Shown in pieces: positions 2,269 through 54,519 of a stretch of DNA of 64,000 nucleotides. Below the pieces are notes generated by a model, which worked only from the letters and a program-made list of their open reading frames with translations, had not been told where the DNA came from and ran no database searches. Made by a program: the position numbers and the translations under genes. Location of the stretch: positions 1 through 64,000 of the forward strand of contig JAYWIR010000144.1 of assembly GCA_036172245.1 (NCBI GenBank), written 5' to 3'. The DNA comes from Raillietiella orientalis (taxonomy: Eukaryota). Every line of letters starts with the position of its first letter. Positions within the stretch are counted from its first letter, which is position 1.

Positions 2269-2305
<37 letters not shown>

Positions 2306-8500: not shown

Positions 8501-8515
8501 ATCGAAAGCTTTACG

Positions 8516-8985
8516 TTGGCTAAAGCGGACGTGTTTCCTCGGTGCTCCTCGTGCCGGGAACCGTGCCTAGGTGTAGGCTTCGTGTGGTGGTGGTCGATCA
8601 GGCAGCAATGCCTGACGCGACCACCAGTACGTGTCAGGGGGCGGTGGCAAGGTCGCCTCCTGAAGAAATGGAGTGCCAGATGACGGCGGCAACGTCGCCT
8701 CTAGAGAAGGTGGTGTGCCAAGGGGCGGCGGCAACGTCGCCTTCAGTTGCGAAGGAGGTGGGGGCGTCCGCCCCCACAAAACCGTTCCCCGCTGCAGCGC
8801 GGGCGTGGAGCGCCGTCGTGTCGGCGCCATCGCCTGCAGCCGCGGCGGAGTTATCTGCCTATGTGGAAGAGGGGTATAACCCATCACTATTCTACAAGGT
8901 AGGAAATTTGTATTCTGCTGAGAGTGCGTGCGACTTTTCGATGGGGATGCGCGCTCTCGATGTTAAAGAAGAGGAGCTCGAAAAT
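8516..8985 (+). mobile_element. 5' end and ORF1 N-terminus of a non-LTR element, 3'-truncated
   Basis: GCGGACGTGTTT at 8525; AAATSP repeats; AYVEEGYNPSLFYKVGNLYS motif shared with 10701- and 52016-. Confidence 0.85.
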
Positions 8986-8989
8986 GGTG

Positions 8990-9560
8990 GGTTTCGGCCG
9001 CAGTGCGTGAACCTCACCGTACTTTCTTAATTCCTCACCAGCTGCTGACCGCGTCATGCGGCTGGTGATGCCAGTCATGTGGACCACCACGGAGCGGTCC
9101 ATTGATACCGGCAGGATTTTGCGGCCGTCTACGTTCAGCGGCGCATGGATTAGGCGGTGAGCCAAGGTGACATCTTTGCAGACCACCTCGACCCGCTGCC
9201 CGCCGCTGAGGACGGAGAGGCTGTCCAGATCCTTCTCGGTAACATTCGTGTCTTTCAACGCTTAGATGAAGGCGCGCGCTGTCCGGCCGTCAAACGAGTT
9301 GCCTACCTGGTAGACAAGCGATGGCTTGTACCCGGAGGCCTTGTATGTGGCCATCTCCGCCATGGCTTCTGCGCTGGGCGCGGCCACCATGGCGCTCCAT
9401 GTCCTCGGCGTGGCCGGGGATGATTCCGGAACGGCTGCCCCTGCTCCAGTAAGCTGTGGGGGCGAACTAGCCTCCCCCACTCTCACCTCCATCGCGGTGT
9501 CCTCTGGCGTCGTGGCCATTGGACACCGACGATGTACACAAAACTCCACACACTAGAAAG
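8990..9560 (-). mobile_element. ORF1 N-terminal fragment of another subfamily
   Basis: WSAMVAAPS...YKASGYKPSLVYQVGN and VEVVCKDVTLAHRL...MDRSVVVHMTG, homologous to the other ORF1 proteins. Confidence 0.8.
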
Positions 9561-9584
9561 CGCTTTCCTACTACCCTTTGAGGA

Positions 9585-11050
9585 GTGAAGGAAAAACACG
9601 TCCTCCAACTGGCCGTGGAGGAAGCTGGCTGCAACGATGCAGCCAGCTCCTCCGCCGCACGCTCGAAGGCGGCGTCATCGATCACGGTCTCGATGACGGA
9701 TGCCTCCGCCGGTTCGCTCCCCACGCTGTTGACATTTTCAACAGTGGGTTGCTCGTCGGTAGCAGCGATTTCTACCTTGCGGCGTTCGGCGGGGACGCGT
9801 TCCACGACGACGCTGCATTCTTTTAAATTCTCGCTAACCTGGTATTTTTTATTTTGGTAGGTGGGCTTTTTTTCGATTCGTCGCTCTTTCTTAAACTTTT
9901 TTTTCTTTTTCGCTGTAACTTCTTGCTTTCCGACACCTGACCGCTTTTGTCAAACTTTTCAGCATTCGTTGCCGGGGTGTCGGCTGAGGCCTGGACCACG
10001 GGAGTTGGTGGCACATCTTGAGCGGCAGCCTTCGCCGCCAGTTTTTTCTGCAGCAATCGCGCGCGTTTTTTTAGGTTCCTCGCGGAAACCACGCGCACAG
10101 CGGATTGTGGACACACTTCCTTCGTGTGGCCCATTCTCACGCATACCAGGCACTGTACGTTGGGGCACCTCCTTTTGAGGTGTCCCGACGCGTTGCAGAA
10201 GCCACAGTATTTAAGCTTCCCCACGTACCAGAGGTCGACGCTTTCTCCGCCGACCACCACTTTGTGAGGAAGGGTAGAGCCCTTCCGAACGGTTACACGG
10301 GCAGCCGTGAAACCGCACTGAACTGTGGTATAGTCCTCCAAAATACTAGGCTTGGTCCATACTGCATGGACCGTACCTTCTTTTCCCAACGCGGCGCGTA
10401 ACTGTTCTTTCCGCATCCGCGCGGTAACTACTAAAAGGTGGACCACCATACTGTGGTCCGCCGTAACGGGAAGTAGCCTGCGTGTCTCCATTACCACGGG
10501 GGTTTTATGCAGACGTTGGGCCAGATCTGCATGTTGGCAGATCACCTCTACGTACTGCCCCCCACTACGAATGGTGATAGCGCAGAGCTCCCCCTCCTTA
10601 ACATTGAGAGCGCGCATCCCCTTCGAAAATGCGCGCGCACCCTCAGAAGAATACAAATTTCCTACCTTGTAGAATAGTGATGGGTGATACCCCTCTTCCA
10701 CATAGGCAGATTATTCCGCCGCGGCTGCAGGCGATGGCGCCGACACGACGGCGCTGTACGCCCGCGCTGAAGCGGGAACCAGTTTTGTGGGGGCGGACGC
10801 CCTTACCTCCTTTGCCACTGAAGGCGACGTTGCCGCCGAACTCTGGCACTTCAACTTTTCTAAAGGCGACGTTGCAGCCTACACCTGGCACTCCATTTCT
10901 TCAGGAAGCGACGTTACCACCGCCCCCTGACACGCACTGTTGGTCGTGTCAGGCATTGCTGCCTGAACGAACACCACCATACACGAAGCCTACACCTAGG
11001 GACGGTTCCCGGCACGAAGAGCACTGAGGAAACACGCCTGCGCTAACCGA
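9585..11050 (-). mobile_element. 5' end and ORF1 (RRM-like region plus two zinc knuckles), 3'-truncated
   Basis: ORF 9823..10701 contains CGFCNASGHLKRRC and CLVCVRMGHTKEVC; close paralogue of 50553..52016. Confidence 0.9.
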
Positions 11051-11065
11051 CGTAAAGCTTTAGAT

Positions 11066-14000
11066 TTTCAACCGCATTTTGCCGGGGCGTTTATTATAAA
11101 ACAAACATTTACAAAGACGTGCAGTGGCAGGACCATTGCTCAGCCACGCACGAAGAAACACAGAGTCTGCCGGGTCCCCGTTTCGCAGAACGGTACGGTC
11201 CATCACGGCAGCAGGGGGAAGGGGGAAAAATAACGAAAACAAAACAAACAAGAAAGGAAAAGTTGGGAGGATGAGGGAAGGGATCACAGTTGCTGGTTGG
11301 GCCGTTGCATCCTGTGCAGGATGCCGACAAGCTCCTTCTGTATTTCTGCATCCAGGTGGAGCCATAGGGATGCCGTCCTCAGAAACTGGGAGGCTGGCTC
11401 GATGGAACCCTGGTCGCGTTGTCCTCCCGCAGCCTTGCTCCAAGGGGTGACGATCCCGAGTAAGCAGCACACAGGTGCTAACGAGGCCGCTGGCCGAAGG
11501 GCGTCGGCAACGAAGAAAGCTTTCAGTGCGTTACTGGGGTTGCCGCAGGGGATTCCGATGTCCGCGGCAAAGCAGAACCAAAGGGGTTGAAGGGCAACAC
11601 AATTTACTAGGAGGTGGGGGAGGGACTCTCGTTCCTCGCACCTTACACAATTGGGATCCACGGCTCCCCAGGTCCAGTGGTGTCGACGAACGTTGCAATG
11701 GAGTACCCAGTGCGGCAAGAGGAGAGCAGACTACTGCCATTTTAAAAGGAAAGTGGAAGTGTTCATTAGCACCGGTGGCCACTTCAGACGTTCAATGGGA
11801 AAATCGAAAAGCGCGCCCAGCGCAGAAGTCCATTGCTAGGCGTGCTCGGAAACGCAGCGTCTGTTATGTGGCCCGCCTTTCACTCTCATATCTTCTTCTT
11901 TCCGGAGATTGTAACTGAAACCTCCCACTTCACCGCAACATCGCTGTCCAGATAACCATCAGGAAGGGCAGCGCAGCAGCGAGGGGGGTTCTTCCTACGC
12001 ACGCTCCCTTCCTTGGATCCTCCAGGATCCCGCGGAGCGTGCAACTTCTGTAACCCCCAAACAGGAACCTTCCTTCCTGTTGGGAGCGTTGCATGCCGAA
12101 CTGTCCCCACGTTCGAACGGTTTCCTGCAACCAGGCACTACCGTTCAAAGGACGACAGGTGAGCAATCCTGGGTTTTTCCGATACAGCGCAGCCACCCTC
12201 CGTAGCTGGAGTCCGCATCGGTTGACCCGGCGAAGGAGTGCAAGAAACGACGTCAGTCCCGTCTTGCTGGTGGCTTGCTGGAGAAGGAGACGTGCAGGGA
12301 CGCACCAATAGGTGCACCACAACTCTGGAACGAGTGCCGACAATCAGAACTGGAGCTGAAGCTCCAGCCGCTCCAGCGTCAGGAGGCCCAGACCACCATC
12401 CCGACGATGAGCGCACAAGTCCTTTAAGCGGACTGGAGCCCTCCTGTTGCCCCAAAGGGCGATACGGAGAAGGATCTTTGTCCGCATTTTAATTCTCTCT
12501 GTGGGGGGGCAAACAAAAAGCAGGAGGCGGAGGAGAGGAGCCGCGAACGTGTTCCAAACCGCAGCCCGTTCAGGCAGGAAAAACCTGCCGCCTCGGAACG
12601 AGCCAATCGCCTTCTCTACTTTTTGAAGGCAGCCGGACCACGCTTCCGCAAAGGAGTAGTTCCCCAACGGCACACCAAGGTACTTGAAGTACCTCACCGT
12701 GGGTATCCCCAAATGGACCCAGTCCTGCTGCCCTGCCCACGCCGCACCAACTGGCATCACGGACGACTTCGCCCTGTTCACCGTAAGTCCGGTTCCCCGA
12801 TGCAGGAGGTCGAAGAACTCCTCGACCGCCGCAGCCGGGGTGGACATAGGGAGCAGCAGCAGAAGGTCGTCCGCGTGCGCTGAAACGGCCGGCGTACCGG
12901 TACAGTCGTGCCGCAGGCGCGCCAGAGTTCCCTTATACGCTCTCAGTACCAACTCAAAGTAGGTACTGAAGAGAAGGAGGCTCAGGCTGTCTCCCTGCCG
13001 CATCCCACGCCGCGTCCGCACGCCGTGCACGGTCTGCCCGCTGAAAGAAACGTTGATGAGCGCGTCGCGCCAACAGAAACGCACATAGGCCACTAATGAG
13101 GCCGGGAAGCCCAAGCGTTGCAGAAGCACCAGAACGGGATTCTGGTCGACGCAATCGAATGCTTTCCGCAAGTCGATTGCGACCGCAAGGGCTCCCTCCT
13201 TCACTTGACCATCCAACCCCTTGCCGGCTCACGCACCGAAATTCCGGCTGCGCACCAAGCTCCTCTCATATTGGAACTCTAGCCAGGTGGAAGCGTGGAA
13301 GAAGTTCGCCTCCATGCTTCGCCCGGCAACAGCATATGTCTGTTGCAGGCTGATGAAGATGTTGCAACCGGTCTTAACCGCTCTGCTTAAAGCATAGCCA
13401 GCAACTGGGCGTCCGCATTTACTCTTCTGATGGGACGCAGGCTGTACACGCTCCTCAGATCTCCTCCCTTTGGGAGGAGACGCACCTTTGCCGAACGAAA
13501 CGAGGCGGGAACGTCACCTGTTTCGCGCGTCAGCAAGGTGAGTTGCTGTACCAGGGGGGTAAGCTCAGCCGCTAAAGTTTGGTAGAACTCCGCGAGCAGA
13601 CAGTCCTCCTTTGGAGCCTTGCGCCTCTTGAGCTTTCCGATGGCCGAGAGGATCTCGTCCATCGTGAAAGGCTCGTCGACGGTCTTTCTCTCCACCTCCC
13701 CGATCGGTGAAGCGCTTTCCAAAAGCGAGAGTCGTGAGACTTTCCTCTCCGTAGATGCCCTGGCGTACAGGGAGGAGTAGTAACTCCGCAGTAGGCAGCG
13801 GATTTGGGCGGGTGCCGAATGCTCCTTGCCCTCATCGTCCAGCAAGCTGGCCGATCCGCACTGCCAGCCTTGCCTTTAGGCTAACGCATTGTATTTCGTC
13901 AGCCTGCGGATGTCGGAGGTCCTGGCGTAACGACGGGCCTGTAGGTAGGCTCGTTCGTTACATACCCCGGTCCCAAAACCCGTAGGTAGGCGGTGCAGAG

Positions 14001-16629
14001 GGATTTCGTCGCAGAACTCCTGGACCGACCGCTTGAAGCGGTCCCAATCCTGGAGTGTCCTAAGCCTGAAGCTCCGTATGAACGTGCAGAGATGTTCCGC
14101 TGCTACCGGGAACTTCAGCGAGTCCCCTGGGAGATGTCACGCTGACGAGGGGGGGCCCCTGTCGCGCGGATGAATATCGAGGACTAGCGGGCGATGGACG
14201 GACAGCTCGCACGGTAAATTGCCGCGCCTGCCCACGCGAGGGCACAGGTGCTTGTCAAAGAACACGTGGTAAATGCTGTCTGCTATCCCCGGTTCACTGG
14301 CCAACAAATTACAGGTGTGCACCTCCGTGCACACCTCATTGTCCAGTTCACGCTCGGGATTCTGCTCATATGGTTTCAGGCGGACGTTGAAATCGCCTGC
14401 AACCAGATGGGCATTCCGCACTCCTGCTTCGGTCAGCCAGTCTCGCCAAAGGGCAAGGAAAAACTCTTTCCTCGCCCTCCTGGTCATCAGGTCCGCGCTG
14501 CTCGGTGCGTACACCTTCGTGACGATCAGATCGATCGAGTCGGACCACCTGAGAGTCAGCTGGCCGGCACGACCGTGATCTTCGAACCGCAGGCCCCGAG
14601 CCGCGGCCTCGACGGCTGGCCGAAGCAGCTAGGGGACATCGCAAATTTTCGCTGTCCCACACCTGTACCATTGTTGCCCTCCGGAGATCCGTTCGATCTC
14701 TTGCGCTTGTTCTGCAGAGATCACGTGGATCTCCTGCAGCAGCGCAAGGTCGTAGGACTCCAGAAGGGCGGCTATGTCTCGTCTCCTGCAGGCGTCTGTC
14801 ATGCCGTTCACGTTCCAAACGGCGATGCGCAGACGACGGCGAGAGGAGATTCCCAACATTACTGCTGGGAAGATTAAGGAGTGGGGGAGCCCTCCTCTTG
14901 AGAGTCGGGGGGGATTTCCTTGGGATTTTCGGCCTTCTCAGGCACCCGAGGCACCTGTTCGGCCTCCACCCCCTCCATCCCCTCCGTGTCCGCGCGTAAG
15001 AGTCTCTCGGGCGACGGGTCCCGAGAGTTTCCCACGCTCATGGCACCCTCGCTTGCGGAAGCCATCTCTTCCCCTTCGACGGGGGAGACGAGCTTCCTTG
15101 GCTTTGTGGACTTACGTCCAGACTTCTTGCGCGGTGCCGTGGAAACGGAGGCTGCGCTTCCGGCCTCCACCTCGGGATCGGAAGTGGGGGACTCCTGAGG
15201 GGAGGCCGGACGCCTTACGGCCTTCTTGCCAGCCTTGGAGGGTTCTGTCTGCAACGAGGCTGCCAGCTCCTCCGCAACTCGCGCGAAGGCTACGTCATCG
15301 ATGGTGGTGTTGATGACGGACGCCGCGGCCGGTTCGCTCCTCTCGCTGTTGACTGTGTCAACAGAGGATAGGTCGTCGGTAGCGGCGAGTTCTTTCCGGC
15401 AGCGTTCGGCAACATCGAAAACGCGTTCGAGAACGACGCTGCACTCTTAAATTATTGCGCTACCCTGCTCTTTCTTCTTCTGTTGGTAGGCGATTTTCTT
15501 TTCCATCCTCCTCTCCTTCTTTGATTTTTTGGCCGTTGCCACTTGCCTCCCAGTCTCCTTGCCGGCTCCCTCAACTTCTTCGGTGTTGGTCGATGGGGTC
15601 TCGGGTGCGGCCTGGGTCTTGGGCGCGGGTGGCGCAGCCTTCGCGGCAGCTTTCGCCGCCAGCCTTTTCTGCAGAAGCCGGGCGCGTTTTTTAAAGTTTC
15701 TCTTGGAAGCCACCCGCACTGCTGCTTTTGGGCACACCTCCCTCGTGTGGCTTATTGTGCCGCATACTTGGCACTCCACATTGGGACACCTCTTTTTGAG
15801 GTGGCCCGACGTATTGCAGAAGCCACAGTATTTCGGCTTCCCTGCATACCAGGGGTCGGCGGTTTCGCCTTCGACCACCAGTTTGTGGGGAAGAGTGCAG
15901 CCCTCTTGAACGTTCACGCGCGCAGCAGTGAGGCCGTGTTGCAGCCCCGTGTAGTCCTCCAAAGGACTTACTTTCGTCCACTGCGCGTGGACCGTTCCGA
16001 ACTGTTCCAAAGCGGCGCTAACCTGTTCTTTGCGCATTCGCGCGGTGACGCCTAACAGGTGGACCACCATGCTGCGGTCCGCCGTAGTGGGGAGGAGCCT
16101 GCGCGTTCCCATCACAACGGGGGTTTTAAGCAGTCGTTGGGCCAGCTCTGCATGTTAGCAGATGAGCTCAACGTACTGACTCCCGCTGCGGAAGGTCATA
16201 GCGCTGAGCTCCTCCTCTTTCACATCGAGAGCGCGCATGCCCTTCGAGAAGGCGCGCGCGCTCTCTTAAGAATATAAATTGCCTACCTTGTAGAACAATG
16301 AGGGGTTGTACCCCTTCTCTACGTAGGCCGACAATTCCGCCGCGGCTGCAGGCGATGGCGCCGACACAACGGCGCTCCACGCCCGCGCTGCAGCGGGGAC
16401 CGATTCTGTGGGGGCGGATGCCCCCACCTCCATCACCTCCGGGGGCGACGTTGCCGCCGCCCCCTGGCTCTCCATCGCCTCTGGGGGCGGCGTTGCCGCT
16501 GCCCTCTGGCCATCCCTGGTGGTCGCGTCAGGCATCGCTGCCTGATCGACCACCGTACCACACGACGCTTGCACTGGGGGAGACTTCCTGGCACGAGGAG
16601 CACCGAGAAAACACGTCCGCCCTAGAGCG
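11066..16629 (-). mobile_element. Near full-length two-ORF L1/Tx1-like element, decayed
   Basis: 5' motif at 16620; ORF1 (~16540-14860) with CGFCNTSGHLKKRC; ORF2 starts at 14859 (WNVNG, LLQEIH, AGDFN, DLRKAFD, RQGDSLS, HADD, KYLG, CVRCEERESLPH); 3' terminal motif at 11066-11095. Confidence 0.92.
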
Positions 16630-18832
16630 CGCAAGGCGTTTGACTGCGTAATTCAGAAGCTGCTCTTGGAGTTCATGAGACGCCTTTGGTTTCCAATGCA
16701 ACTGCTGTTGTATTTGCGCGCGTGCTGGCGCCATGGGCTAACCTGCATCACTTTCAGCAGCTCCCGTGTGTATGGCATTCTACTGCGTTGGTGCATCCGA
16801 TAGGGCGACAGGTTAAGCCCGTTGCTCTTCAGAATCTTCTTTGAGTTGGTACTTAGAGCATACAGGCTCTCGCTGTCTCACTTGCCAAGCACCTGCCCGT
16901 GAACGCTTGCCGTGGCCGATTACGCTAATGACCTGCTTCTTCTGCTCCCCATGTCCACTTCGGCGTCCAGTGTCGAGCATTTCTTCGACCTGATCTGTAG
17001 AAGAGCGGGCGTAAGCGTGTACAGAGAGAAGAGAGTGGTCCTTCCTGTGGGTACGTCGTGGGAGGGGCAGTCCGACTGGATCCGCATGGGGATCCCCACG
17101 GGCGCGTACTTTAAGTACCTTGGCGTTCCGTTGGGCGCTGTCAGCGAAGCCGACGCGTAAGCGGAATGTCTTCAGAAAGCAGAGTTGTCCATCAGCCCTT
17201 TCCTTAACGGCAAGTTTACCTCGCAGGAACGGGCGACTATTTGGAACACCTTTGTGGCCCCCCTCCACCGTTCCCTGTTTTTTGTTTCGGACCCCCCCTA
17301 TGCGGCAAAACAGCGGGCTAAACGCCTGCTCAGGAACGCCCTCTGGGGTCCGGCGAGATCCAGGATCTGTCTTAAAGATTTGGTTGCTCCGCGTCGGGAT
17401 GCTGGTTTGGGTATCCTGACAATGGAGCGACTCGGACTGCAGGTGCAGTTCCGACTGCTTGCACTGTGTGCCCAGCTATGGACATCCCCCTTGTGTGTGC
17501 CAGCCCGCATTCTCCTGCGGAGATGCGCCGGCAGCGGAGGATTTCTCTCGCTTTTGCCTTGCACTCAATACAGGAAGCGGAATTTTGGGTTTTCATGGCG
17601 ACAGTTGACCGCACTTCTGAAAGCTTACTCGTGGATCTCATGCCGCTCAATGAACTTTAAAGGTTGGCAGCAGGAGACTGTTGAATCCTTGGCGGCTTTC
17701 CAAGGAATATGCCCTGAAGATCTTCGCACCCTGCGTTACTTTTTTCCACGATCCTGGGAAGAAGTACTGAAGGACGAGGTGAAGTTTTCTACCCTGGCTG
17801 CCACGCCTCTTGCCGCAGCGCTGTCTGCCCTCAGGGCTAGAAACGACAGTTGCCAAGCGGCGAGGTGGGAGGTTTTCTGCACAATAGCAGGAAAAACCAA
17901 ACTCCTTGGCGCCTCGAAGACGAGTGAGTTGGCGGACGCCGCCATTCCTCGTTCTACTGCAAAGGGACGTCTCCGGTGGGCAGAAGAACTTGCTGTCACC
18001 CCCGAAGAACTTGTAGTCCATCCACAGTGTATTGACAGTTCGCTGCTCTCCCTTGCTTGGAAACCAGCCGTGCTGCTTTTCGTTCACTGGGTTTTCAGTG
18101 CAACGAGCGTTGGCATCTTGATTCCTGGGGTCTTGCGTCTGCGAACTGCGTTCGGTGCGGATCGACGGAGTCGATTTCGCACCTACTTCTTGACTGCGGT
18201 GTTCTACAAGGACTGTAACGTAGGCTGGCAACAGCACTAATGCATCCCGTGGACACCGCAAGATACTTGCTGCGACGATTCTTCACGCCGAGCGGGCTGA
18301 CACTAAGCGCAAGGATTGCAACCATCGGTTGCATACGCGCGATAATTTCCGTCCGCGAGGCGTTGGTAATTAACGGACAGCACCAAGAGCTAATCAGCAA
18401 AGCATCCTTCTACATTGGAGCATCCGCTAGATGGCCTCATTTGACAGAGGAGACAAAAAGGAATCTCGCCGCAATACACCGCCGGTTTACACACCCTCAG
18501 CAGCGATCAACCCGGTGATCATTGCCCTACCCTTCATAACCTAATTTTGTATTTTCTTTTTACACCCGTGTCCCCATAGTCTTCGGAATATTTCAGGTAC
18601 TCATCGTTTGAATCTACGTGAGTACGGAGCCTAACCAAAAACTTGTTACCCTTCCCTCCATTTTTGTATTTTTGTTTGTTTCCCCTCATTCCTTCCATGG
18701 TGCGAGCGGTTTGTTTACCAGGCCTTTGTGCCGGTAATTTTTCTATGTTCCCTGTCGTTCTGTTGGTTGGGGAGATTGTCCCTGACCAGTTTATTATTAT
18801 TAATAAACGCCCCGGCGTGACCGGGTGATAAA
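16630..18832 (+). mobile_element. ORF2 3' half (from the RKAFDC motif onward) and 3' end of a divergent subfamily
   Basis: Starts CGC AAG GCG TTT GAC TGC; YANDL, KYLGVP, DAGLG; ORF 17185..18240; terminus TAATAAACGCCCCGGCGTGACCGGGTGATAAA. Confidence 0.88.
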
Positions 18833-19178: not shown

Positions 19179-19179
19179 T

Positions 19180-19500: not shown

Positions 19501-19504
19501 GGGC

Positions 19505-23919: not shown

Positions 23920-24170
23920 TGGACCGGGACATAATGAATAGTTCAGTCCGAGAGTTCTGCGACCAGTTCCCTTTGGGCCGTCTTTCCTCAGGTTCCGGAG
24001 AAGAAATCAGGAATGACTGCGCGTTCCTACACGTCCGTACTCATTCCAGGAATCCCGACTTCCAAAGCCTGGCGGAATATAAAGCTGATGCTGAAAGACA
24101 GGCCTTGCGATCCGGCTCTGCGAGCTTCCTGGACGCTCAAGGTCATGAGTGCTCAGCTGCAGCACAGGTT
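23920..24170 (+). mobile_element. EN-RT linker fragment
   Basis: SVREFCDQFPLGRL...SGSASFLDAQGHECSAAAQV. Confidence 0.75.
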
Positions 24171-36730: not shown

Positions 36731-36789
36731 TTAACTGATTAAGTTGTCGAGCGCACAATACTTTGAGCAGCGAAGCAAGTTCACCGACT

Positions 36790-39700: not shown

Positions 39701-39838
39701 AAGGCAGAGCGTGCACTTGGCCCGTTTTCAGGAGGCGAGTTTGTCTTGCCGGAACGGGCCTACATCTGGAACACCTTCGTTGCCCTCCTCCTCCGCCCCC
39801 TGTATTTTGTTTGTCCATCCCCCCAGGAAGTCAAAGTC
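36790..39838 (+). mobile_element. ORF1 C-terminus, endonuclease and RT; truncated at both ends
   Basis: SWNVNG, LLQEIH, AGDFN (ORF 37452..38177); DLDKAFDC, GIRQGD, YVDD (ORF 38927..39841). Confidence 0.88.
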
Positions 39839-39899
39839 TGAGCGCAGCGCCTTCTACGCAAAGCGTGGTGGGGCGCTGCGCTCAGACTGTGGGAGTGTC

Positions 39900-43529: not shown

Positions 43530-46500
43530 GCGGACGTGTTTTTTCCGCGCTCCTCTGCGCCTGTTGTAAAGCGTTCTTTTTCGGTAGTGTTTGTGTGTGG
43601 AGCATCTGCGGTGTGCAATGGCAGAAATGCCTGAGGACACTGCGATGGAAGTCGGCGGGGGAGAAAATTGCTACTCTCCCCAACCTTTTGAGGTGGGGGC
43701 AACCGCCCCCACGGAGAAGAGAGCAACCGCTCCCTTGAAAAAGGGGGCAACCGTTTCTCAGGAAACGAGGGCTACTGCCACCTTGAAAAAGGGAGCGGGT
43801 GGAGCTGACGTGCAAAAATGCAAATCTGGCTCAACGCCTGCTGAACACTCCCATCGCTCTGGAAGGCCGAAAGGTCTTCCCTGTAACGGAGGACCGCTTT
43901 ATTGTTGCCCACCTTACGGGTGTAACTCTTCGCATGACCAAAGCTGGCGTGCAGGAAGAGTTACAAAAACATGCTACGGTGCTTGCGCTCTGGGCCAAGC
44001 CCAACGTCTTCCAAACATACGAAAGACTGTTCAGTGGCATGGCTGCAGCGCGTTTGACGGTCCACGAAAACGGTGGGCTGCCCCACAAACTCGACGTCGG
44101 CAACGAGGTCGTCGCCGTCTAGTACGTGGAAAAGCCCAAGTACTGTGGGCACTGTGATGCAACAGGGCACCTGAAAAAACGGTGCCCCCACATCCAGTGC
44201 TTCCACTGCGGCGAAAAGGGCCACCTACGAAAGGTGTGTCCTAAACGCGAAACCCCGGCTCCCCCTGCTTTGAAAAAAGCCAAAGGGAAACGCGCGGGGC
44301 GATCGGACAAGCCTAAGGAGGCACCCGAGAGGCGGAACCCACAGCCAGAGCCCGAACCCGTGCAGCAAGCGTCGGTCGAGGGTACTCCGGACGACGCTGG
44401 AGAGAGCGAGGGCTGGCATAAGGCGAAGCCTAAAAGTAAAAAATTAAAGAAAACCGAAGAACCGACAGCGGAACCTGCGACATCTTCTTTAAATTGGAGA
44501 CAACGCCGCGCGTTGCTCCGCGAATGTTCGGTCGCTTTGGAGCGAGTGGAGATCCATGAGACCTCCACCGGGGGAGATATCTCCCGCCTCGTTGGCGCCG
44601 AAGCCGCGATCGAAAAAGGCGAACCCTCTGTGCAAACAGAGGGGGAGCCGAGCGACGCGCTCGCCGCAATCGAGGACGCCGCTTTCCAGCAGGCGGCGGA
44701 AGAGCTCGCGGCCGAACTCGCGGGGTGTGAGAACTGCGCGCGAAAGGCCTTGCGAAGGCCGGGCGCCAGCAAGGCACCTCGGACAGGTGACCACGAACCG
44801 GATGCCGGAAGTGCGTCCTCGTCCGCGGAGGCGCCTCCGAAGAAGACTGGACGGAAGTCCAAGAATCCCAAGAGGCGCATCCCGACAAAGAAGGAGGGGG
44901 ACGCACCGGCATCCGAGGGGGAAGCCGGCAGCGTGGGAACGGAGGGAGGGATTTTCCCACCCTCCGCTACCGAGCAACTGGAGACCCCCATGGAGGAGGG
45001 GGATAAGGTGAGTGATTGCCGCCCTTTCCCATTGGTGGAACCTGTCCAGGAGATAGCCATGGAGGAGGGGGAGCAGACAGCTGACAACCGCTCCCCCCTG
45101 CCGTCCAACGCAGCCGACGAATCGGCCCCCATGGAAGAGCGGGAGCAGGTGCGTGAAACCCGCCCCCTTCAACCGTTGCGGTCCGCCGAGGAATCGGCCC
45201 CCATGGAGGAGAGAGAACCGGTGCGCGGTGATCCCGTTTTTCCATCCGTCACGCCCGAGCAGGTGGCGGGAGCCATATTGCCACTTTCCCAAGAGTAACA
45301 CCTGGGCTCGCCTGTCGCCGTCGATTACGCGTGGCCTGCTCGAACGTGAACGGGCTGCGCGACGACGGCAACAGAGAGGACACGGCCGCCACCCTGCGTG
45401 ACTTCGACCTGGCACTCCTGCAGGACATCCACGTGATCACCGCAGAGAACGCCCAGGAGATCGAAAGGATCGCAGGGGGACGGTTGATGTGGCAATGCGG
45501 CACCCGATACACCTGCGGCGTCGCGTTTTTTCTGAAGCCGGCAGTCGACGCAGCCGTGAAGAGCGTGCGCTTCGACGAAGCCGGTCGTGTCGGCCAGCTG
45601 ATTCTCAAATGGTCCGACACGATCGACCTCGTCGTAACAAATGTGTACGCTCCGAGCGGTCCTACCAGGTACCAAGATCGTAAGGCGTTCCTGGAAACCC
45701 TGAAGCGCGACTGGCTGGCGGAAGCGAACGTGCGCGTGGCTCACCTGATAGCGGGAGACTTTAATCTCCGCCTGCTATCAGGTGAGCCACACGCACAGGA
45801 GCGGACGGCTAACGAGTTGTGCGCCGCCATGCGCACGCGCAACTTGTTAGGGGATCTTTCGGAAATGGTCAGCAGCATCGACCACGTCTTCCTGGATGTC
45901 GACCTGTGTTCACGGGTAGGCAAACGGGGGAAAGTTGCGTCGGAGCTGTCTGACCATTTCCGGTTGATATTCGAGGTGTGCCCGCGCGACAAGGGCCCCC
46001 CATCCAGGGCGTGGCGTCTGCCTGGGGAATGGACGCGACTCTTAGGTGCGAAGGAACACCTTCGGGAATTCCTGAGAGGCGTCACCATCCGCAATCTCAA
46101 TGATTGGGACCTTTTTAAGGCCTCGGTCCGCGAGTTTTGCGAGGAGTTCCCCTTGCACCTCCTGCCCCAGGGATTTGGTAAGGGCATCCGTAACGAACGA
46201 GCGTACTTGTATGCCCGTCGTTACTCGAGGACCCCCAATGTCCGTCGCCTGGCAGAGTACCGAGCCGGGGCCGAACGTCAAGCCTGGCAATCCGGATCGG
46301 CCAGCTTGCTGGACGACCAGGGCCGTAAGCACTCGGCTCCGGCTAGAATACGGCACCTCGTGCGGCGTTTATATTCCTCCCTTCACGCCAGGGCGCCCCC
46401 GGACCAAGATGCCTCTTGGCGCTTGCTTCCGAACGGTGCCCCGGCAATAGGGGAGGAGGAGAAGGAAAGCCTCGACGAGCCTTTTACCACCGGCGAAATT

Positions 46501-49093
46501 CTCGCCGGTATCAAAAGGCTCAAGAGGCGGAAAGCGCCAGGGGAGTACGGCCTGCCTGCGGAGTTATTTTAATGCTTCGCGGCAGAGTTGGCACCCCTGG
46601 TGCTTGAGTTGACAAGGCTGATCCGAGATGAAGGCGATGTACCCGCCTCGTTTCGGTCAGCCAGAGTGAGGCTCCTTCCGAAAGGAGGAGACCTCAGGAA
46701 ACTCAGCAGCTGGCGTCCGATCACAATTGTGAACACGTACGCCAAGCTGATCGCCGGACTGTGGGCTTCGCGTCTGGGTCAGGTGGCCAATTCCATAATT
46801 AGCCCGGAGCAGAATTACGCTGTTCCCGGGCAAAGTATGGAGGCCAGCCTCTTGTTCGCGAGCACATGGTTTCATGTGCAGAGTAGTAAAGAAAAGGAAG
46901 AGAGAAGGATTGGCAGCCCCGCTTTGGGGGCGTCAGCCGGGCAGGGACAGGACTCCCAGGTGGGGAAGGGAGCCCTAGCGATCGCAGCCGATCTGCATAA
47001 AGCGTTTGACTGCGTGGACAAGGATCTCCTGCTGGAGCTCCTGGGACGCATGGGCTTCCCTCCCTCCCTACTGACCCAGCTGCGCTCTTGCTGGCGCAGC
47101 GCGCTGATTAATATCTCTTTCAGAGGTCAAATGGCGTACGGCGTGCCGGTACGGCGGAACATACGGCAGGGCGACAGCCTCAGTCCCCTGCTCTTTAGCA
47201 CCTACTTTGAGTTGGTGCTGAGAGCGTACAGGGTGACTTTGGCCCCCTTGCCGAGCTCGTGTCCCGGCACGCCCGCCGTTGCAGCGCACGCCGACGATCT
47301 TTTGCTTCTGTTGCCGATGTCCACCCCGGCGAAGGCGGTCGGGGATTTCTTCGATCTGCTTAGCCGCGGGACCGGACTGCAGGTCAACAGGGCGAAGTCG
47401 ACGGTGGTTCCAGTCGGTGCGGCGTGGGCTGGGCAGATGGACTAAGTCCGCTTGGAGATCCCCACGGCGAGGTGCTGGAAGTACCTTGGTGTGCCGTTGA
47501 AGGACTACCCTCCTGCGGAAGCGTGGTCCGGCTGCCTCCAAAAAGTGGAAACGGCGATCGGCCCGTTCCTGGAAGACAAGTTTCTCCTTCCGGAACGGGC
47601 CTAGATATGGAACGCGTTCGCGGCTCCTATCCCCTGCCCCCTGCTTTTTGTTTGCCCCGTCCCCAGAGTGTTGAAAATACGGACGAAGGACCACCTGAGA
47701 ATTGCTCTTTGGGGAAGAGGGAGGCCCCGAGTCCCGTTGAAGGACTTGTGTGCTCCACGTCGGGATGGCGGTCTGGGCCTCTTGACGATGGAGCGTTTAG
47801 AGATTCAGCTGCGGTGGCGAACCTTCGCCATCGCAGCGAAGTTATGGAGCACTTCTTGGTGCGTTCCAGCCCGACTCCTTGCCAGCCGTGTATCCTGGAC
47901 GGAGGGTCTCGCGTCCTATCTTCTCTGCCGTGGCAAGAAGATCAAGAGATGCGGACTTCTCCTGGGACGCATGGCAACTCTGGCTAAGGAAAACGGCTGG
48001 ATAGTATGAAGCCCCGCCAACTCCTCCGCATGTCTGGAGGAGACAGCTGGCACGTGGGCGAAGATAAAGCAGCAGAACGGAGAGATGTGGAACTGCGTGC
48101 GACGCGGCGCCTATTCCCTCTGCACTCTGCGGAAGATACTCCAGTGTCCCGCGAGAAGCACGTGGGCAGAGACAACCCCCCTAGCTACGGCAATGCCCTT
48201 CCTGAGGAGGGCGCTCTCGAGTAGCCGCAAGCCTAGGTGGCAAGTCTCCTGTCGCATCGCAGGCTAGGAGAAGTTGATCAGCGGCTGGTCCACGGGTAAA
48301 CTGGCGGACGCCAGTACCCCTAGTGTCCAGCCGAGAGGACTGCAGAGATGGGGCGAGCTACTCGGCATCCAGCCGGATGACCTGAAGTGGCCCTCGGTAT
48401 TAATTGGATCTAGGATCCTCCCCCTGAAGTGGCAGGAGTCGGCGCTTCTGTTGTTGCATTGGGGTCTACCCTGCAACGCACGCCGTTACCACTGGACCAG
48501 GGATCGAGTAGATCCTACCTGCATCAGGTGTGGGGAACGGGAAACTCTCCCCCACCTCCTTGTTGATTGTGCTGCACTCCGACCCCTGTGGGAACGTCTT
48601 CGTGCCTCCCTACGGATCCAGGAGGGCAGCCAGCCCAGAGACGTTTTTCGGTTTCTGTTCCTGCATGATGCATTGCGTCCAGGCGCTTTTCTGGCTGCAC
48701 TTTGCTGCGTACGCGGGATTGTGACGTGCTGGAGCAACGTCGGAAGACCGAGTCACGACAGGGATGCCGTCGTACTTGCAGTCTGCTACCTGCGGTTGGT
48801 GACCAGATGGCCCCACGTGGGAATTATACGGACGGACCTCGAGGGCATCCTGCGAAGGATGGACCCTTTTCCCAGTGGTCAGTGATCCTTCCCCAACCCT
48901 CCCAAATCTTTTTGTTTTTATGTTTTATTTTTCTTTTTGTTTTTCCCCCCACCCCTTTCCGCTGCCGAGGAGAGTCGCGCCGGTCTGCGTACCGGCGACC
49001 CGGCAGGTCCAGTTGAGTTGGCCGTAGTGGGGCCTCGTACCACGAATCAAAGAGAATTTTTAATAAACGCCCCGGCGTGACCGGGTGGCAACA
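43530..49093 (+). mobile_element. Near full-length two-ORF element with a 13-bp target-site duplication
   Basis: Starts GCGGACGTGTTT; ORF1 with CGHCDATGHLKKRC and CFHCGEKGHLRKVC; ORF2 45331-48885 (AGDFN, DLHKAFD, HADD, CIRCGERETLPH); terminal hairpin 49069-49089; flanks ATCAACTTGGCGT (43517-43529) and ATCAACTTGGCAT (49094-49106). Confidence 0.92.
44985..45225 (+). repeat. Coding tandem repeat, ~72-bp period, four PMEE-type units in the ORF1 C-terminus
   Basis: TPMEEGDK / IAMEEGEQ / APMEEREQ / APMEEREP spaced 24 aa apart. Confidence 0.75.
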
Positions 49094-50552
49094 ATCAACT
49101 TGGCATCCGCATTCACTATTGTGATGGGACGCCAGTTGTTCATGCTCCTCAGATCTCCTCCCTTAGGGAGAAGCTGCACCTTTGCCGAACGAAACGAGGC
49201 GGGAACGTCACCTGTCTCGCGTATCAGCAAGGTGAGTTGATGTACCAGGGGGGTTAGCTCAGCCGCGAAAGTTTGATAAAACTCCGCGGACAGGCCGTCC
49301 TCCCCTGTAGCCTTTCGCCTCTTGAGCTTTCCGATGGCCGAGATGATCTCGCCCATCGTGAAGGACTCGTCGAGGGACTTTTTCTCTTCTTCCCCGATCG
49401 CAAGAGCGCCTTCCGGAAGCAGGATCCGTGAGAAATCCCGCTCGGGAGGCGTTCTTGCGTACAGGGAGGAGTAAAAACGCCGCAGCAGACCGCGGATCTG
49501 AGCGGTTGCCGAATGCTCCTGGCCCTGATCTTCCAGCAAGCTGGCCGATCCTGACTGCCAGGCTTGCCTCTCGGCTCCCGCTTTGTAATCCGTTATCCTG
49601 CGGATGTCGGGGGTCCTGGCGGAACGGCGAGCCTGCAGATAGGCTCGTTCGTTACGTACCCCGTTTCGAAATCCCGCAGGTAGTCGGTGCAGAGGGAACT
49701 GGTCGCAGAACTCCTGGACCGAACGTTTACAGCGGTCTCAATCCTGAAGTGTCTGCATCCTAAAGCTCCGTATAAACGTGCGGAGATGTTCCGTCGCGTC
49801 CGGGAGCTTCTTTCAGTCCCTTGGCAAAGGCCACGCTGACGAGGGGGGGCCCCTCTCGCGCGGATGGATTTCAAACACGATTGGTCGATGGTCGGACAAC
49901 TCGCACGGCAACTTGCAGCGCCTGCCCACACGAGTGCACAGGTGTTCGTCAAGGAACACGTGATCGATGTTGTCCTCCATCCCTGGTACACTGGCCAACA
50001 AATTACAAGTGTGCACCGCCGCGCACACCTCGTTGACCAGGTCACGCTCGTGATTCGTCCCATGCGGTTTCAGACGAACGTTAAAATCGACTGCCACCAG
50101 ATGGGCATTCCGCACGCCTGCCTCGGTCAACCAGTCGCGATGGAGGGCAAGGAAAAATTCTTTCGTGGCCCTCCTGTTCGTCAGGTCCGCTCCGCTCGGG
50201 GCGTAAACGTTCGTAACGATCAGGTCGATGGAGACGGACCAGCTGAGAGTCAGCTAGCCGACACGACCGTGATCGTCGAATCGAACTCCACGGGCGGCGG
50301 CCTTGATGGCGGGCCGAAGCAGGTAGGAGACACCACAACTTCTCGATGTTCCACACCGATACCACAGCCGCCCTCCGTAGATGCGTTCGATCGACTGCGC
50401 TTGTTCTGCAGAGATCACATGGATCTCCTGCAGCAGCACAAGGTCGAACGATCCTAGAATGGCGGCCATGTCTCGTCTCCTGCCGGCGTCTGTCATGCCG
50501 TTCACGTTACAAACGGCGATGCGCAGACGACAGCGGGAGGAGATTCCCGGCA

Positions 50553-52016
50553 TTACTGCCGGGAAGATGACGGTGAGAGGGAACCCGCCTCTTCCGACGC
50601 GGGTGAGATGACCATTAAGGTTTCAGCCTCCTCAGGCACCTTGGGTACCTTTCCTGCTTCAGGCCCCTCCATCTCCTCCGTGTCTGTGGGTGGTGGTCTC
50701 TTCGGTGACGATTCCCGGGATTCTCCCACGCTCATGGCATCCTCGCAGTCGGAAGTGATCTCCACGCCTTCGACCTGGAGAGGGACTTTCCGGGGTTTGC
50801 TGGACTTCCTTGCAGCCTTCCGGCGGGGTGCCGCGGAGATGGAAACTTGGTTTCCGGCCTGCGCTTCGGGGTCGGAAGTTACCGACTCCTCGGTGGAGGC
50901 CGGACGCCTCACTGCTTTTTTGCCAGCCTTGAAGGGTTCTGGCGGCAACGATGCAGCCAGCTCCTCCGCCGCACGCTCGAAGGCGGCGTCATCGATCACG
51001 ATCACGATGACGGACGCTTCCGCCGGTTCGTTCCCCACGCTGTTTACATTTTCAACAGTGGGTTGCTCGTCGGTAGCAGCGATTTCTACCTTGCGGCGTT
51101 CGGCGGGGACGCGTTCCACGACGATGCTGCATTCTTTTAAATTCTCGCTAACCTGCTGTTTTTTATTTTTGTAGGCGAGCTTTTTTTCAATTCGTCGTTC
51201 TTTCTTCGACTTTTTTTTCTTTTTCGCTGTGACTTCTTGCCATTCCCACACCTGATCGCTTTTGTCGATCTTTTCGGCATTGGTTGCCGGGGTGTCGGCT
51301 GAGGCCTGGACCACGGGAGTGGGTGGCACAGCTTGAGCGGCAGCCTTTGCCGCCAGTTTTTTCTGTAACAGCCGCGCGCGTTTTTTTAGGTTCCTCGCGG
51401 AAACCACGCGCACAGCGGATTGTGGACACACTTCCTTCGTGTGGCCCATTCTCACGCATACCAGGCACTGTACGTTGGGGCACCTCCTTTTGAGGTGTAC
51501 CGACGTGTTACAGAAGCCACAGTATTTTGGCTTCCTTACGTACCAGAGGTCGACGCTTTCTCCGCCGACCACCAGTTTGTGGGGAAGGGTAGAGCCCTCG
51601 CGAACAATTACACAAGCAGCCGTGAGGCCGCACTCAACTGTGGTATAGTCCTCGAAAGGACGAGGCTTGGTCCATACTGCATGGACCGTGCCTTCTTTGC
51701 CCAACGCGGCGCGTAACTGTTTATTCCGCATCCGCGCGGTAACTCTTAAAAGGTGGACCACCATAATGTGGTCCGCCGTAACGGGAAGGAGCCTGCGTGT
51801 CTCCATTACCACGGGGGTTTTATGCAGACGTTGGGCCAGATCTGCATGTTGGCAGATCACCTCTACGTACTGCCCCCCGCTACGAATGGTCATAGCGCAG
51901 AGCTCCTTCTCTTTAACATCGAAAGCGCGCATCCCCTTCGAAGAGGCGCGCGCACTCTCAGAAGAATACAAATTTCCTACCTTGTAGAATAGTGATGGGT
52001 GATACCCCTCTTCCAC
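50553..52016 (-). CDS. Retrotransposon ORF1 (RRM-like region, zinc knuckles, acidic tail); N-terminus frameshifted off
   Basis: 487-aa open frame with CGFCNTSVHLKRRC, CLVCVRMGHTKEVC and DDAAFERAAEELAASL; its stop overlaps the ORF2 ATG (TAATG). Confidence 0.85.
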   Translation of the reverse strand: MEEGYHPSLFYKVGNLYSSESARASSKGMRAFDVKEKELCAMTIRSGGQYVEVICQHADLAQRLHKTPVVMETRRLLPVTADHIMVVHLLRVTARMRNKQLRAALGKEGTVHAVWTKPRPFEDYTTVECGLTAACVIVREGSTLPHKLVVGGESVDLWYVRKPKYCGFCNTSVHLKRRCPNVQCLVCVRMGHTKEVCPQSAVRVVSARNLKKRARLLQKKLAAKAAAQAVPPTPVVQASADTPATNAEKIDKSDQVWEWQEVTAKKKKKSKKERRIEKKLAYKNKKQQVSENLKECSIVVERVPAERRKVEIAATDEQPTVENVNSVGNEPAEASVIVIVIDDAAFERAAEELAASLPPEPFKAGKKAVRRPASTEESVTSDPEAQAGNQVSISAAPRRKAARKSSKPRKVPLQVEGVEITSDCEDAMSVGESRESSPKRPPPTDTEEMEGPEAGKVPKVPEEAETLMVISPASEEAGSLSPSSSRQ

Positions 52017-52365
52017 ATTGGAAGATTATTCCGCCGCGGCTGCAGGCGATGGCGCCGACACGACGGCGCTATACGCCCGCGCTGCAGCAAGGACCGGTTT
52101 TGTGGGGGCGAACGCCCCCACCTATTTCGCCTCTGAAGGCGACGTTGCCGCCGCCTCCTGGCACTCCACCTTCTCTACAGGCTACGTTGCCGCCGCCACC
52201 TGGCACTCCATTTCTTCAGGAGGCGACGTTGCCACCGCCTCCTGACACGCACTGGTGGTCGTGTCAGGCATTGCTGCCTGATCGACCACCATCACACACG
52301 AAGCCTACACCTAGGGACGGTTCCCGGCACGAGGAGCACCGAGGAAACACGTCCGCTCTAGCCGA

Positions 52366-54519
52366 CGTAAAGCTTTCGACTGCGTCGACCAGGAGCTACT
52401 TCTGGAGCTACTGGAACGCTTGGGATTTCCGGCCGTCTTCCTGGCCTACCTGCGCTCCTGCTTGCGCTTCGCGCTTATCAATATGAATTTCAGCGGCCGG
52501 CACGTGTTCGGCGTGCCGGTTCGTCGTGGCATCCAGTAGGGTGACAGCCTAAGCCCCCTGCTCTTCAGCATTTACTTTGAGTTGGTGCTGAGAGCATACG
52601 GGGAGACTTTGGCAACCCTGCCTAGCTCGTGCCCCGGCACGCCTGCCGTGTCGGCCTATGCCGACGATCTTCTGCTCCTGCTTTCCGGGTCCACCCCGGC
52701 ATCCGCGTTCTAGGATTTCTTTGACGTGCTATACCGTGGGACAGGTTTCCAGCTAAACAGGTCGAAGTCGTCGTTGCTTCTCACCGACTCTACGAGGGCC
52801 GGACGGTCGGACTGGATCCGCTTGGGGATCCCCACGGGCAGGTACATCAAGTACCTTGGCGTTTTGTTGAGGGACTTCTGCTCTGCAGAAGCCTGGTCCG
52901 ACCGTCTACAAAAAGTGGAGCTGGCAATCGGCCCGTACCGGGACGGCAAGTTTCACTTGAAGGAACGGGCCACGGTATGGAACGCTTTCGCGGCCCCCCT
53001 CCTTCTCCCCCTACTTTTTGTGTGTCCTATCCCGTACCAAATCAGGACACGGACTAGGGGCCTTATACGGAAAGCCCTCTGGTGCAACCGGAAGCCCCGC
53101 GTCCGGCTCAAAGACTTGTGCGCTCCAGGCAGCGACGGTGGACTTGGTCTCCTGACGTTGGAGCGCATGGAGCGACAGCTCCAATTCAGAAAACTTGCCC
53201 TTGTGGCAAAGTTTTGGACAGCACCCTGGTGTGCAACGGCAAGACTCCTTGCTCACAGGGCAACCGGCGGCTTTGGATTGACTTCAATCCTGGTAGCCAA
53301 CGAACGCAGCCTGAACCATTGTGGTTATCAGCTGCGGGATTTGGTTGCCCTTCTGAGAGACAACTCTTGGATCTCCTGCATCCCAGCAGACTGGACTACC
53401 TGGATTCAGGACTCCGTTTCCGCATGGGCGAAGATCAATGGCACCAGCCATGAGGACCTCTCCTGTCTCCGCAGAGGGAGGCACGCTGGTCAACCACTGC
53501 AGGAGATCGCCCGCAGCCCACGGAAGCTTCTGTGGGCCTCCTTCTCCCCTCTTGCCCCGGTGCTGCCCTCCATCAGGGAAGTTCGGGACAGCCAGCAGGA
53601 GGCATCGTGGGGAGTGTACTGCCTCATCGGAGGCAGGAAGAAATCACTGAAGGCGTGGACGCCGAGGGAACTAGCGGACGCTAGTACCCCGAGTGTCCCG
53701 CCGAACGGACTTTTAGGCTGAGGCGCGCTGCTCGAACTATCTCCAGAGGAGGTAAAGTGGCCCCCAGCGTCATGGGACAACGGCACCCTTCCTCTGCAGT
53801 GGCAGGAGACGGGGTTGCTTCTGCTCCACTGGGCACTTTTAAGCAGAGCACGCCTGTCTCGCTGGACAACAAGAAATGTGGATGCTAGTTGTGCACAGTG
53901 CGGGGAAAGGGAGACCTTCCCTCACTTGATTCTGGAGTGTGTTGCCCTCCGCGAAATGTGGGAAAGACTCTCGTCGATCCTCAACATTTCGGAGGGTGAC
54001 CCAAAAATTTTATTCAGACGCATTCTGACGCGAGAGGGCTTGTCAGCCTCCGGGAGCGTAGCAGTACTCTGCTGCATACGCGGTATCCTGGAGAAGTGCA
54101 CCGCGTCTAGGAGAGGAAGGACCAGCCGGAATGCCATCCACTGGGCAGCGATCTCCTTGGAGAAAGCGTGCCGTTGGCGCCGACTTCAAAAACATTTGCC
54201 AGCACTTGTTCGCATCCGAAACCGGATGCTAAGGCCTGCTCACGGCGCACCGTGATCTACTCCCTCCCTTCCCCTCCCCAAAAAAACATTGCCCTCCAGG
54301 CGTTTTTCTTTTTTTTGTTTTTGTTTCCTTTCATTTTTCCCTTCCCGGTGCCAGTGAAGGAACTTATCGGCCTCCGAGTCGATAGGGACAAGTGCTACTG
54401 AACTTCTGAACTGAACGTCTGACGTCGTAAAAAGGAAAATTTTAACAACATAAACTTTATTACAAAATTTTGTAATGTTAAAATTTTAGTATTTAAAGCC
54501 CCGGCTTACCCGGATGAAA
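52366..54519 (+). mobile_element. ORF2 3' half (from RKAFDC onward) and 3' end
   Basis: Begins CGT AAA GCT TTC GAC TGC GTC GAC CAG; YADD at ~52657; ORF 52726..53721; CAQCGERETFPH; terminus GCCCCGGCTTACCCGGATGAAA. Confidence 0.9.

Follow-up and report, generated by a model that had tools for sequence, protein, structure and literature searches.

Target-specific long interspersed nuclear elements (LINEs) provide models for safe-harbour insertion and for the joint choice of an insertion site by endonuclease and RNA, and are known to target host multicopy genes, repeats, DNA transposons and long terminal repeat (LTR) elements. Elements of the Tx1 clade form tandems that sandwich copies of their target, and R2 carries a hepatitis delta virus (HDV)-like ribozyme at the 5' end of its transcript. 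In the sections of the literature drawn on here, Tx1 families are described at sites within DNA transposons and LTR retrotransposons, often in opposite orientation, with Tx1L in the DNA transposon Tx1D, Tx1-Mar in Mariner-N4_AMi, and Tx1-8_Crp and Tx1-4_AMi in LTR retrotransposons, and SINEU-3, a short interspersed nuclear element (SINE) partner of Tx1 elements, occurs in tandems with a 16-bp target copy enclosed between the units (PMC4494074). R2 transcripts carry upstream target sequence, and this co-transcription strengthens target-specific 5' joining (cited in PMC4494074). Insect R1 targets 28S ribosomal DNA (rDNA), where a tandem array separated by 33-nt rDNA duplications has been reported (PMC5932611), and Cnl1 of Cryptococcus is a LINE that prefers to insert within itself, giving nested subtelomeric arrays (PMC9942834). 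Here we report on a LINE family of ~5.5 kb, designated E, in a 64-kb stretch of the Raillietiella orientalis genome (contig JAYWIR010000144.1, positions 1 to 64,000; hereafter the window, to which all counts of E refer). The ends of E adjoin a 15-nt sequence (15-mer) that reads as the R-K-A-F-D codons of a LINE reverse transcriptase (RT).

Six copies of E were mapped by self-comparison and end motifs (Table 1), the first of them (E1) on the basis of a self-BLAST alignment (4982-8979 against 14576-10585), tblastn and the presence of a poly(A) signal, hairpin and tail. BLAST searches of the window with the first 200 nt of E returned five 5' ends only, and searches with the last 215 nt returned three 3' ends only, at 8500, 11066 and 41541, which share the terminus ...GGGTGAAA (...TGAAA). 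All five 5' ends and all three 3' ends abut a 15-mer, and each of the five 15-mers encodes R/G-K-A-F/L-D on the strand opposite to the adjoining E. The distance from the 15-mer to the 5' motif of the element (GCGGAC in three copies, GCAGGC in one and GTGGAC in one) is exactly 9 nt in five of five cases. An earlier note on this stretch had listed the five 15-mers as antisense to the adjoining element, the 9-nt offset to a GCGGAC-type motif, and 3' ends in ...TGAAA at the other edge of three of them, forming head-to-tail pairs; its coordinates and letters were reproduced throughout.

The number of KAFD-like sequences is not in itself informative: a degenerate codon pattern matches the window 16 times with at most one mismatch, against 9.85 matches expected, and 3 of 100 shuffles reach 16, so that the count alone is within chance and the signal lies in the constancy of offset and orientation across all E ends. 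The five 15-mers vary at six positions, five of which are codon third positions (hypergeometric P 0.002), as is expected of sequence drawn from, or matched to, different coding genes.

Table 1. Positions of E copies, adjoining 15-mers, RT genes and associated elements in the window
Feature	Position	Strand	Description
E1	4882-8500	+	3' part of E; own RT, KAFD uninterrupted at 6398-6409; ends ...CCGGGTGAAA at 8500
15-mer #1	8501-8515	-	RKAFD; sole spacer between E1 3' end and E2 5' end
E2	8516-8979	+	5' 464 nt, subfamily Ea; cut at 8979/8980 against X 5' fragment
E internal segment	8571-8580	+	E nt 56-65 from first base after the 15-mer; same position in all five copies
X	8980-9605	-	5' fragment of another LINE
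E3	9612-11050	-	5' 1.44 kb, subfamily Ea; cut at 9612 by abutting X 5' terminus (GAGGACGTGTTT)
15-mer #2	11051-11065	+	RKALD (one change); sole spacer between E3 5' end and E4 3' end
E4	11066-16629	-	complete, 5,564 bp; Eb-type 5' end; own endonuclease and RT; frames decayed
15-mer #3	16630-16644	+	RKAFD; opens T2, in frame as RKAFDCVIQKLLLEF...
T2	16630-18832	+	RT downstream half, different LINE lineage; begins exactly at R codon; 3' tail GATAAA
T0	24165-27076	-	closest T1 relative; site uninterrupted at 26302-26316; empty-site control
G	37422-39838	+	closest T2 relative; site uninterrupted at 39155-39169; empty-site control
E''	39895-41525	-	5' 1.63 kb, subfamily Eb
15-mer #4	41526-41540	+	GKAFD; sole spacer between E'' 5' end and E' 3' end
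E'	41541-52365	-	complete, subfamily Ea; two pieces (41541-43529 and 49094-52365) split by nested F
F	43530-49093	+	full-length 5.56-kb LINE nested antisense in E'; 13-bp duplication ATCAACTTGGCRT at 43517-43529 and 49094-49106
15-mer #5	52366-52380	+	RKAFD; opens T1, in frame as RKAFDCVDQELLLEL...
T1	52366-54520	+	RT downstream half, T lineage; begins exactly at R codon; own 3' end ...GGATGAAAA

At three junctions, tandem E pairs are separated by exactly one copy of the site. Over the first 460 nt, the E copies fall into a subfamily Ea (E2, E3 and E', 88-92% identity) and a subfamily Eb (E4 and E'', 92%), which are 76-82% identical to each other, and over the last 250 nt E1 and E' share 87% identity and E4 is 64-70% identical to both. 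The tandem junctions mix these types, joining an a-type 3' end to an Ea 5' end, a b-type 3' end to an Ea 5' end, and an a-type 3' end to an Eb 5' end. Because these combinations differ, the three junctions are not copies of a single junction.

At the two remaining 15-mers the site continues as an open RT frame, and both RT halves, T1 and T2, extend to their own 3' ends, as expected of pre-existing copies that were later cut. The earlier note had described these as real RT frames of clearly different subfamilies, in agreement with their 63.3% identity, and the uninterrupted copy of the site that it had placed at 26302-26316, in the RT gene T0, is real; uninterrupted sites are also present in six more RT genes (at 6398, 13165, 33184, 39158, 43281 and 46999). 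We aligned the nine RT genes over 840 nt starting at the K codon. T1 is 81.8% identical to T0 and 63.3% to T2, and the closest relative of T2 is G, at 66.6%. The maximum-likelihood tree pairs T0 with T1 (ultrafast bootstrap, UFboot, 74) and G with T2 (78), both apart from a clade of E and F, the latter being the LINE nested within E'. A forced T1+T2 clade is rejected by the approximately unbiased (AU) test (delta lnL 50.4, p-AU 3.2e-10). Because of their low mutual identity, their closer uninterrupted relatives and the rejection of a joint clade, T1 and T2 represent separate hits that struck identical codons in identical orientation. By a rough estimate, the chance of two separate hits at the same codons is of the order of 1 in 10,000 for an element of ~5.5 kb.

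These comparisons bear directly on the possibility that a single ancestral insertion took place and that the composite then spread as DNA, through segmental duplication and recombination. The window does contain large DNA-level duplications (1849-5494 against 64000-60377, 97.9%; 20586-22598 against 59019-57007, 90.7%) as well as rearrangement junctions, such as the palindrome at 39835-39890, and one BLAST alignment spans the junctions at 15-mers #3 and #5 (13402-17497 against 49096-53233, 75.4%). Spread from one insertion is nonetheless quite improbable, since identity is 63.3% between the RT halves at #3 and #5 but 81% between the adjoining E parts, each RT half has a closer uninterrupted relative and the T1+T2 clade is rejected (p-AU 3e-10), and the three tandem junctions join different subfamily combinations. 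The earlier note had set descent of all junctions from one insertion as its own refutation beforehand, and the tree, the AU test and the mixed-subfamily tandems contradict such descent.

The anatomy of the E copies likewise speaks to their origin. Pfam RVT_1 is matched in E copies at 6203-6832 and 12347-13228, and Exo_endo_phos matches are confined to neighbouring families; the endonuclease and RT of E4 and E' align by tblastn to an intact 910-aa open reading frame (ORF) of one such neighbour. The KAFD site of E4 itself is uninterrupted, at 13154-13165. Twin priming of L1 yields products in which an antisense segment reaching to the very 5' end is joined to a sense segment running to the 3' end. 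The geometry of an antisense E 5' part beside a sense RT part resembles such products, and E' seemed to end ~200 bp before KAFD until the nested F was recognised, so that both parts might be taken for the outcome of one retrotransposition event with 5' inversion. We find this account hardly credible: E4 is complete (5,564 bp), with its own RT, KAFD site and 3' end, E' is complete once F and its 13-bp duplication are removed, the RT halves derive from lineages other than E, and breakpoints of twin priming would not be expected to fall repeatedly at a single codon. Since E4 and E' are complete, twin priming is refuted for these copies.

E thus combines an apurinic/apyrimidinic endonuclease (APE) and RT with ends that lie on one site, independent hits with empty relatives, and tandems; its recurring ends, the uninterrupted relatives and the site-spaced head-to-tail pairs form the known signature of target-specific APE LINEs (PMC4494074; PMC5932611). 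Starting from these observations (the anatomy of E, the recurrence of the site at all E ends, the two independent RT hits and the mixed-subfamily tandems), we consider it probable that E is a target-specific LINE of the L1/Tx1 kind, with APE and RT, that targets the RT RKAFD motif of related LINEs. The target would comprise 15-16 bp encoding R-K-A-F-D, which is RT motif A with its catalytic Asp, and entry would be antisense to the host RT. The E endonuclease would nick the RT-sense strand at a predicted position immediately after the D codon (...TTCGAT^TGC...), and the 3' OH at the nick would prime reverse transcription at the 3' end of the E RNA (...GGGUGAAA, 22-23 nt after AAUAAA). The RNA is predicted to carry a site copy at its start, namely a 15-nt leader followed by 9 nt, transcribed from the upstream site of the donor itself, and this leader would sit in the basal stem of a 5' hairpin of ~80 nt, to which we assign only a putative role. 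By annealing to the cut target, the leader cDNA would fix the 5' junction through homology. Every insertion would leave the site on both of its sides, so that later insertions could build head-to-tail arrays with one site copy between elements, and the host RT gene would be split within its active site. As the earlier note had proposed, an E insertion in RT motif A obviously disables the host copy, which it cuts within that motif. Its further proposal, that the RT motif serves as target with a duplication of ~15 bp, holds in part: recurrent antisense insertion, two RT lineages and arrays support the target, and a strict 15-bp duplication is so far not borne out, the 15-mers flanking each complete E copy differing from each other.

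The 15-mers themselves suggest a different role for the repeated sequence. Their type follows the E whose 5' end they abut, the Ea type (CGTAAAGCTTT...) being found at #1, #2 and #5 and the Eb type (C at position 3, G at position 9) at #3 and #4. Because the type tracks the downstream element, the 15-mer is probably carried with the element as a 5' leader and is not simply duplicated target; the mismatches between 15-mers within an array further imply that array growth has not proceeded solely by repeated insertion into a duplicated host site. A short segment inside the 5' untranslated region (UTR) of E (GTGTAGGCTT in Ea; GTGCAAGCGT or GTGGAAACGT in Eb) is complementary to the 15-mer and resembles the sense RKAFD codons minus two bases. 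RNAalifold, run on the five copies, pairs the 15-mer with this segment, placed 57-65 nt further in, and on the alignment 42 of 45 cells between 15-mer and internal segment are paired, against 22-40% when the partner is slid, and the two diagnostic Ea/Eb positions of this pairing are compensated on both sides.

The same behaviour opens the way to the most serious rival, in which the order of events is reversed. The 15 nt would then be the first bases of E, a fossil leader, and T1 and T2 would have inserted beside E 5' ends and been 5'-truncated at KAFD through the 15-nt homology of their cDNA to the E leader. The 15-mer does behave as part of E, co-varying with the E subfamily and pairing with an internal E segment; the upstream half of an RT gene nowhere adjoins E, and for R2 a role of homology in 5' joining is accepted (cited in PMC4494074, in the sections considered here). 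Such a history would nevertheless require that two unrelated LINE families with different 3' tails each landed within bases of an E 5' end, and the flank upstream of both E copies would then be something other than the site (the 5' end of another LINE, Y; an F-like endonuclease region), yet three of three E 3' ends lie on the site. Nor does it fit a contig from a public DNA run, described below, that joins a T0-like site to a leaderless, 5'-truncated E. Overall, we hold the reversed order to be improbable.

One public DNA run was compared with the window; it holds 0.07 of the sampled words, 532 of its contigs matched, most of them less than 90% alike, and depth and uncovered parts are uninformative. 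On one run contig (depth 2), a T0-like copy breaks off within the site, at 26313, and is joined there to E sequence from ~8428-8434, 73 nt away from the 3' end of E, a structure compatible with a 5'-truncated E inserted at this site in a different copy. The run is also relevant to whether the junctions are false joins within collapsed repeats, given that the region is nearly all repeats and that this one run, with 0.07 of sampled words, offers no piece spanning the stretch. We judge an assembly artefact very improbable, because five junctions have identical exact offsets with flanks diverged by 8-37%, a sequence of 15 nt is too short to mislead an assembler, and the junctions match proper element termini, with poly(A) signal, hairpin and tail.

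Several observations weigh against targeting of RT genes by E. The RT hits whose independence is beyond doubt number only two, and every observation derives from a single window of 64 kb. Seven of the nine RT genes that cover the site are unhit, including all three of E's own, and two are interrupted. The two key nodes of the RT tree have only moderate support (74 and 78). None of the three E 3' ends in the window adjoins the upstream half of an RT gene, and each of the three arrays terminates in an E copy truncated on its 3' side (464 bp, 1.44 kb and 1.63 kb), which leaves the far side of the target out of view. The 15-mers flanking E4 differ at 5 of 15 positions (#2 against #3) and those flanking E' at 4 of 15 (#4 against #5), more than is expected for simple duplication. 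Covariation in the leader pairing rests on two lineages, and 25 of 500 shuffles reach its score; folded as single sequences, the 5' 85 nt of E give unremarkable z values (-1.1 to -1.4). The joint in the public run is weakly recorded, by one contig of depth 2 and with its type unspecified. Finally, pattern scans with the 5' motif of the clade gave six loci in metagenome contigs, none similar to the window by BLAST, two bacterial loci in prokaryote genome contigs, and one locus in viral contigs, on a contig already matched among the metagenomes; the loci from these three public collections are taken as chance matches, and no relatives were found there. To these points may be added that the window contains no single E insertion flanked by both RT halves and a matching duplication. 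Single copies with a perfect 15-bp target site duplication and the upstream RT half on their 3' side, for which the earlier note had suggested looking, were likewise absent from the 64 kb.

A more far-reaching version of targeting by E may also be considered. E would act as a hyperparasite that recognises the most conserved RT codons of its relatives partly via RNA, at a target that cannot easily mutate away. The sense-like RKAFD copy in its 5' UTR would pair with the antisense site, either in the carried leader or in opened target DNA, and the guide and site variants of Ea and Eb would have co-evolved, amounting to RNA-assisted target choice in an APE-type LINE. We put this forward as speculation and regard it as rather unlikely.

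Further structure is apparent in the 5' UTR of E. Past the first hairpin (8516-8660 and four homologues), alignment columns 87-133 hold a conserved long stem-loop with a GCAA/GCGA tetraloop, and columns 141-160 a third hairpin, whose four-base loop is of GNNA type; some pairs in the E 5' UTR are altered on both sides. No Rfam family reached its gathering score in the window, the E 5' UTR included, and at an expect value of at most 10 no ribozyme family was matched in 8400-9000, where only chance-level matches to small nucleolar RNA and microRNA families were returned. An HDV-like double pseudoknot at the E 5' end was tried by manual fit and rejected, there being no P2 and a candidate pairing that is missing in Eb. 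The consensus fold of the E 5' end consists of nested hairpins, with the double pseudoknot not formed. In the 5' UTR of F, GTAAAGCGTTC (43566-43576) is a perfect sense copy of the (R)KAF codons, analogous to the E internal segment, and pairs with the 5' terminus of F itself; the corresponding place in X (9490-9605, minus strand) is occupied by GGAAAGCGCTTTC. The KAFD-like internal segment may be older than family E.

F, the sister family of E, provides a further instance of nesting. Read antisense, its 13-bp duplication gives the N-A-D-A-K-L codons of the E' RT, which belong to another conserved RT motif (WRPITIVNADAKL). This insertion is a single event, and two other F-like 3' ends (21304; 2955 and its duplicate at 62936) have unrelated flanks. 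As an ordinary insertion, F shows that duplications of this size are normal in the E/F clade. No common target was found among the 3' flanks of F-like or H-like copies in the window, and site specificity within the window was seen only in E, and possibly in T. Both T-family 3' ends (...GGRTGAAAA; 54512-54540 and 24150-24175) are followed by ACCTG(C/T)G, which at 54521 is the exact 5' terminus of the LINE Y (plus strand); the start of a second Y copy, at 27077, adjoins internal T0 sequence. T, too, may prefer one particular site, located at the 5' end of a LINE.

Other junctions in the window reflect rearrangement. E2 and X meet at a rearrangement at 8979/8980. Where G meets E'', a perfect 16-nt inverted repeat (GTCTGAGCGCAGCGCC ... 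GGCGCTGCGCTCAGAC) lies at 39835-39890; there, G (plus strand) is cut 680 bp past KAFD and E'' (minus strand) at 1.63 kb, and this palindrome is a rearrangement junction of the fold-back type. The 3' cuts of E2, E3 and E'' look like later rearrangements. At both ends of the window, 1849-5494 and 60377-64000 form an inverted duplication of 3.6 kb with 97.85% identity, which is much younger than the LINE copies inside it. A second inverted DNA-level duplication (20586-22598 and 57007-59019) has 90.7% identity, and its two arms share one junction between an F-like 3' end and an antisense E-like linker region, so that these junctions represent one event.

The window (64 kb, 55.7% G+C, no N) is made up almost entirely of decayed, nested LINEs with APE and RT, and many of its stop-to-stop frames match Exo_endo_phos, RVT_1, zf-CCHC or zf-RVT in Pfam. 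At the 5' end, its LINE families share a terminal motif, GCGGACGTGTTT, and behind it a small hairpin whose loop is CTCCTC; at the 3' end they share AATAAACG, a hairpin of CCGG type and a short tail particular to each family, with no poly(A) tract. The best-preserved LINE is a member of family M (31298-36730, minus strand), with a 339-aa frame, a 910-aa frame and then two more frames; the 910-aa frame (32981-35710, minus strand) is still open and covers zf-CCHC, the endonuclease and the start of the RT, with KAFD intact at 33173-33184. In protein searches this ORF had no relative above 38% identity, and F ORF2 had one relative at 68%, on a metagenome contig of 2.9 kb, with all others at 26% or less. 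The closest solved structure to F ORF2 is human L1 ORF2p (expect value 2.6e-38), against 2e-11 for R2, and the zf-RVT and zf-CCHC domains of the neighbouring families are compatible with L1/Tx1 in general, so that the likeness shown is to the L1 superclade as a whole.

If targeting by E is true, one retrotransposon exploits and inactivates its competitors at a sequence that they cannot change without loss of function, and the build-up of nests and arrays consisting of LINEs only is explained. The complementarity between leader and internal segment leads to a testable idea, namely that the 5' junction is set by homology to the target over the first 15 nt of the RNA. No description of a LINE target in RKAFD codons was found in a full-text literature search whose scope left out most subscription journals and Repbase Reports.

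The resemblance to described systems is closest for the Tx1 clade, with which E shares the APE-type architecture, a short target inside another transposable element, opposite orientation, and tandems with a single target copy (PMC4494074, in the sections drawn on here). Unlike Tx1 targets, that of E would consist of the catalytic-motif codons of a sibling LINE RT and not of a DNA transposon, LTR element, small nuclear RNA gene or microsatellite, and the sections of PMC4494074 drawn on here describe for Tx1 no pairing of the kind predicted between the E leader and internal segment. Like R1, as far as the material of PMC5932611 used here goes, E is an APE LINE with a strict site, arrays formed by repeated insertion at the same site, and target sequence kept in the junction; it differs in that its target lies in the RT gene of a relative or competitor, as opposed to a host multicopy gene, and in a spacer of 15 nt versus 33. 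E would resemble R2 in having target sequence at its RNA 5' end as an aid to fixing the 5' junction, whereas R2 has a restriction-like endonuclease and an HDV-like ribozyme, and E is without a ribozyme family match and has a predicted fold of nested hairpins. As with Cnl1, the target of E lies in LINE copies, giving arrays; in contrast, Cnl1 is described as nesting in tandem orientation in its own copies near telomere repeats (PMC9942834, in the part considered here), while E enters antisense at RT motif A codons and its two clear cases lie in other lineages. A target in sibling RT codons, together with an apparent pairing between leader and internal segment, would set E apart from the known target-specific APE LINEs.

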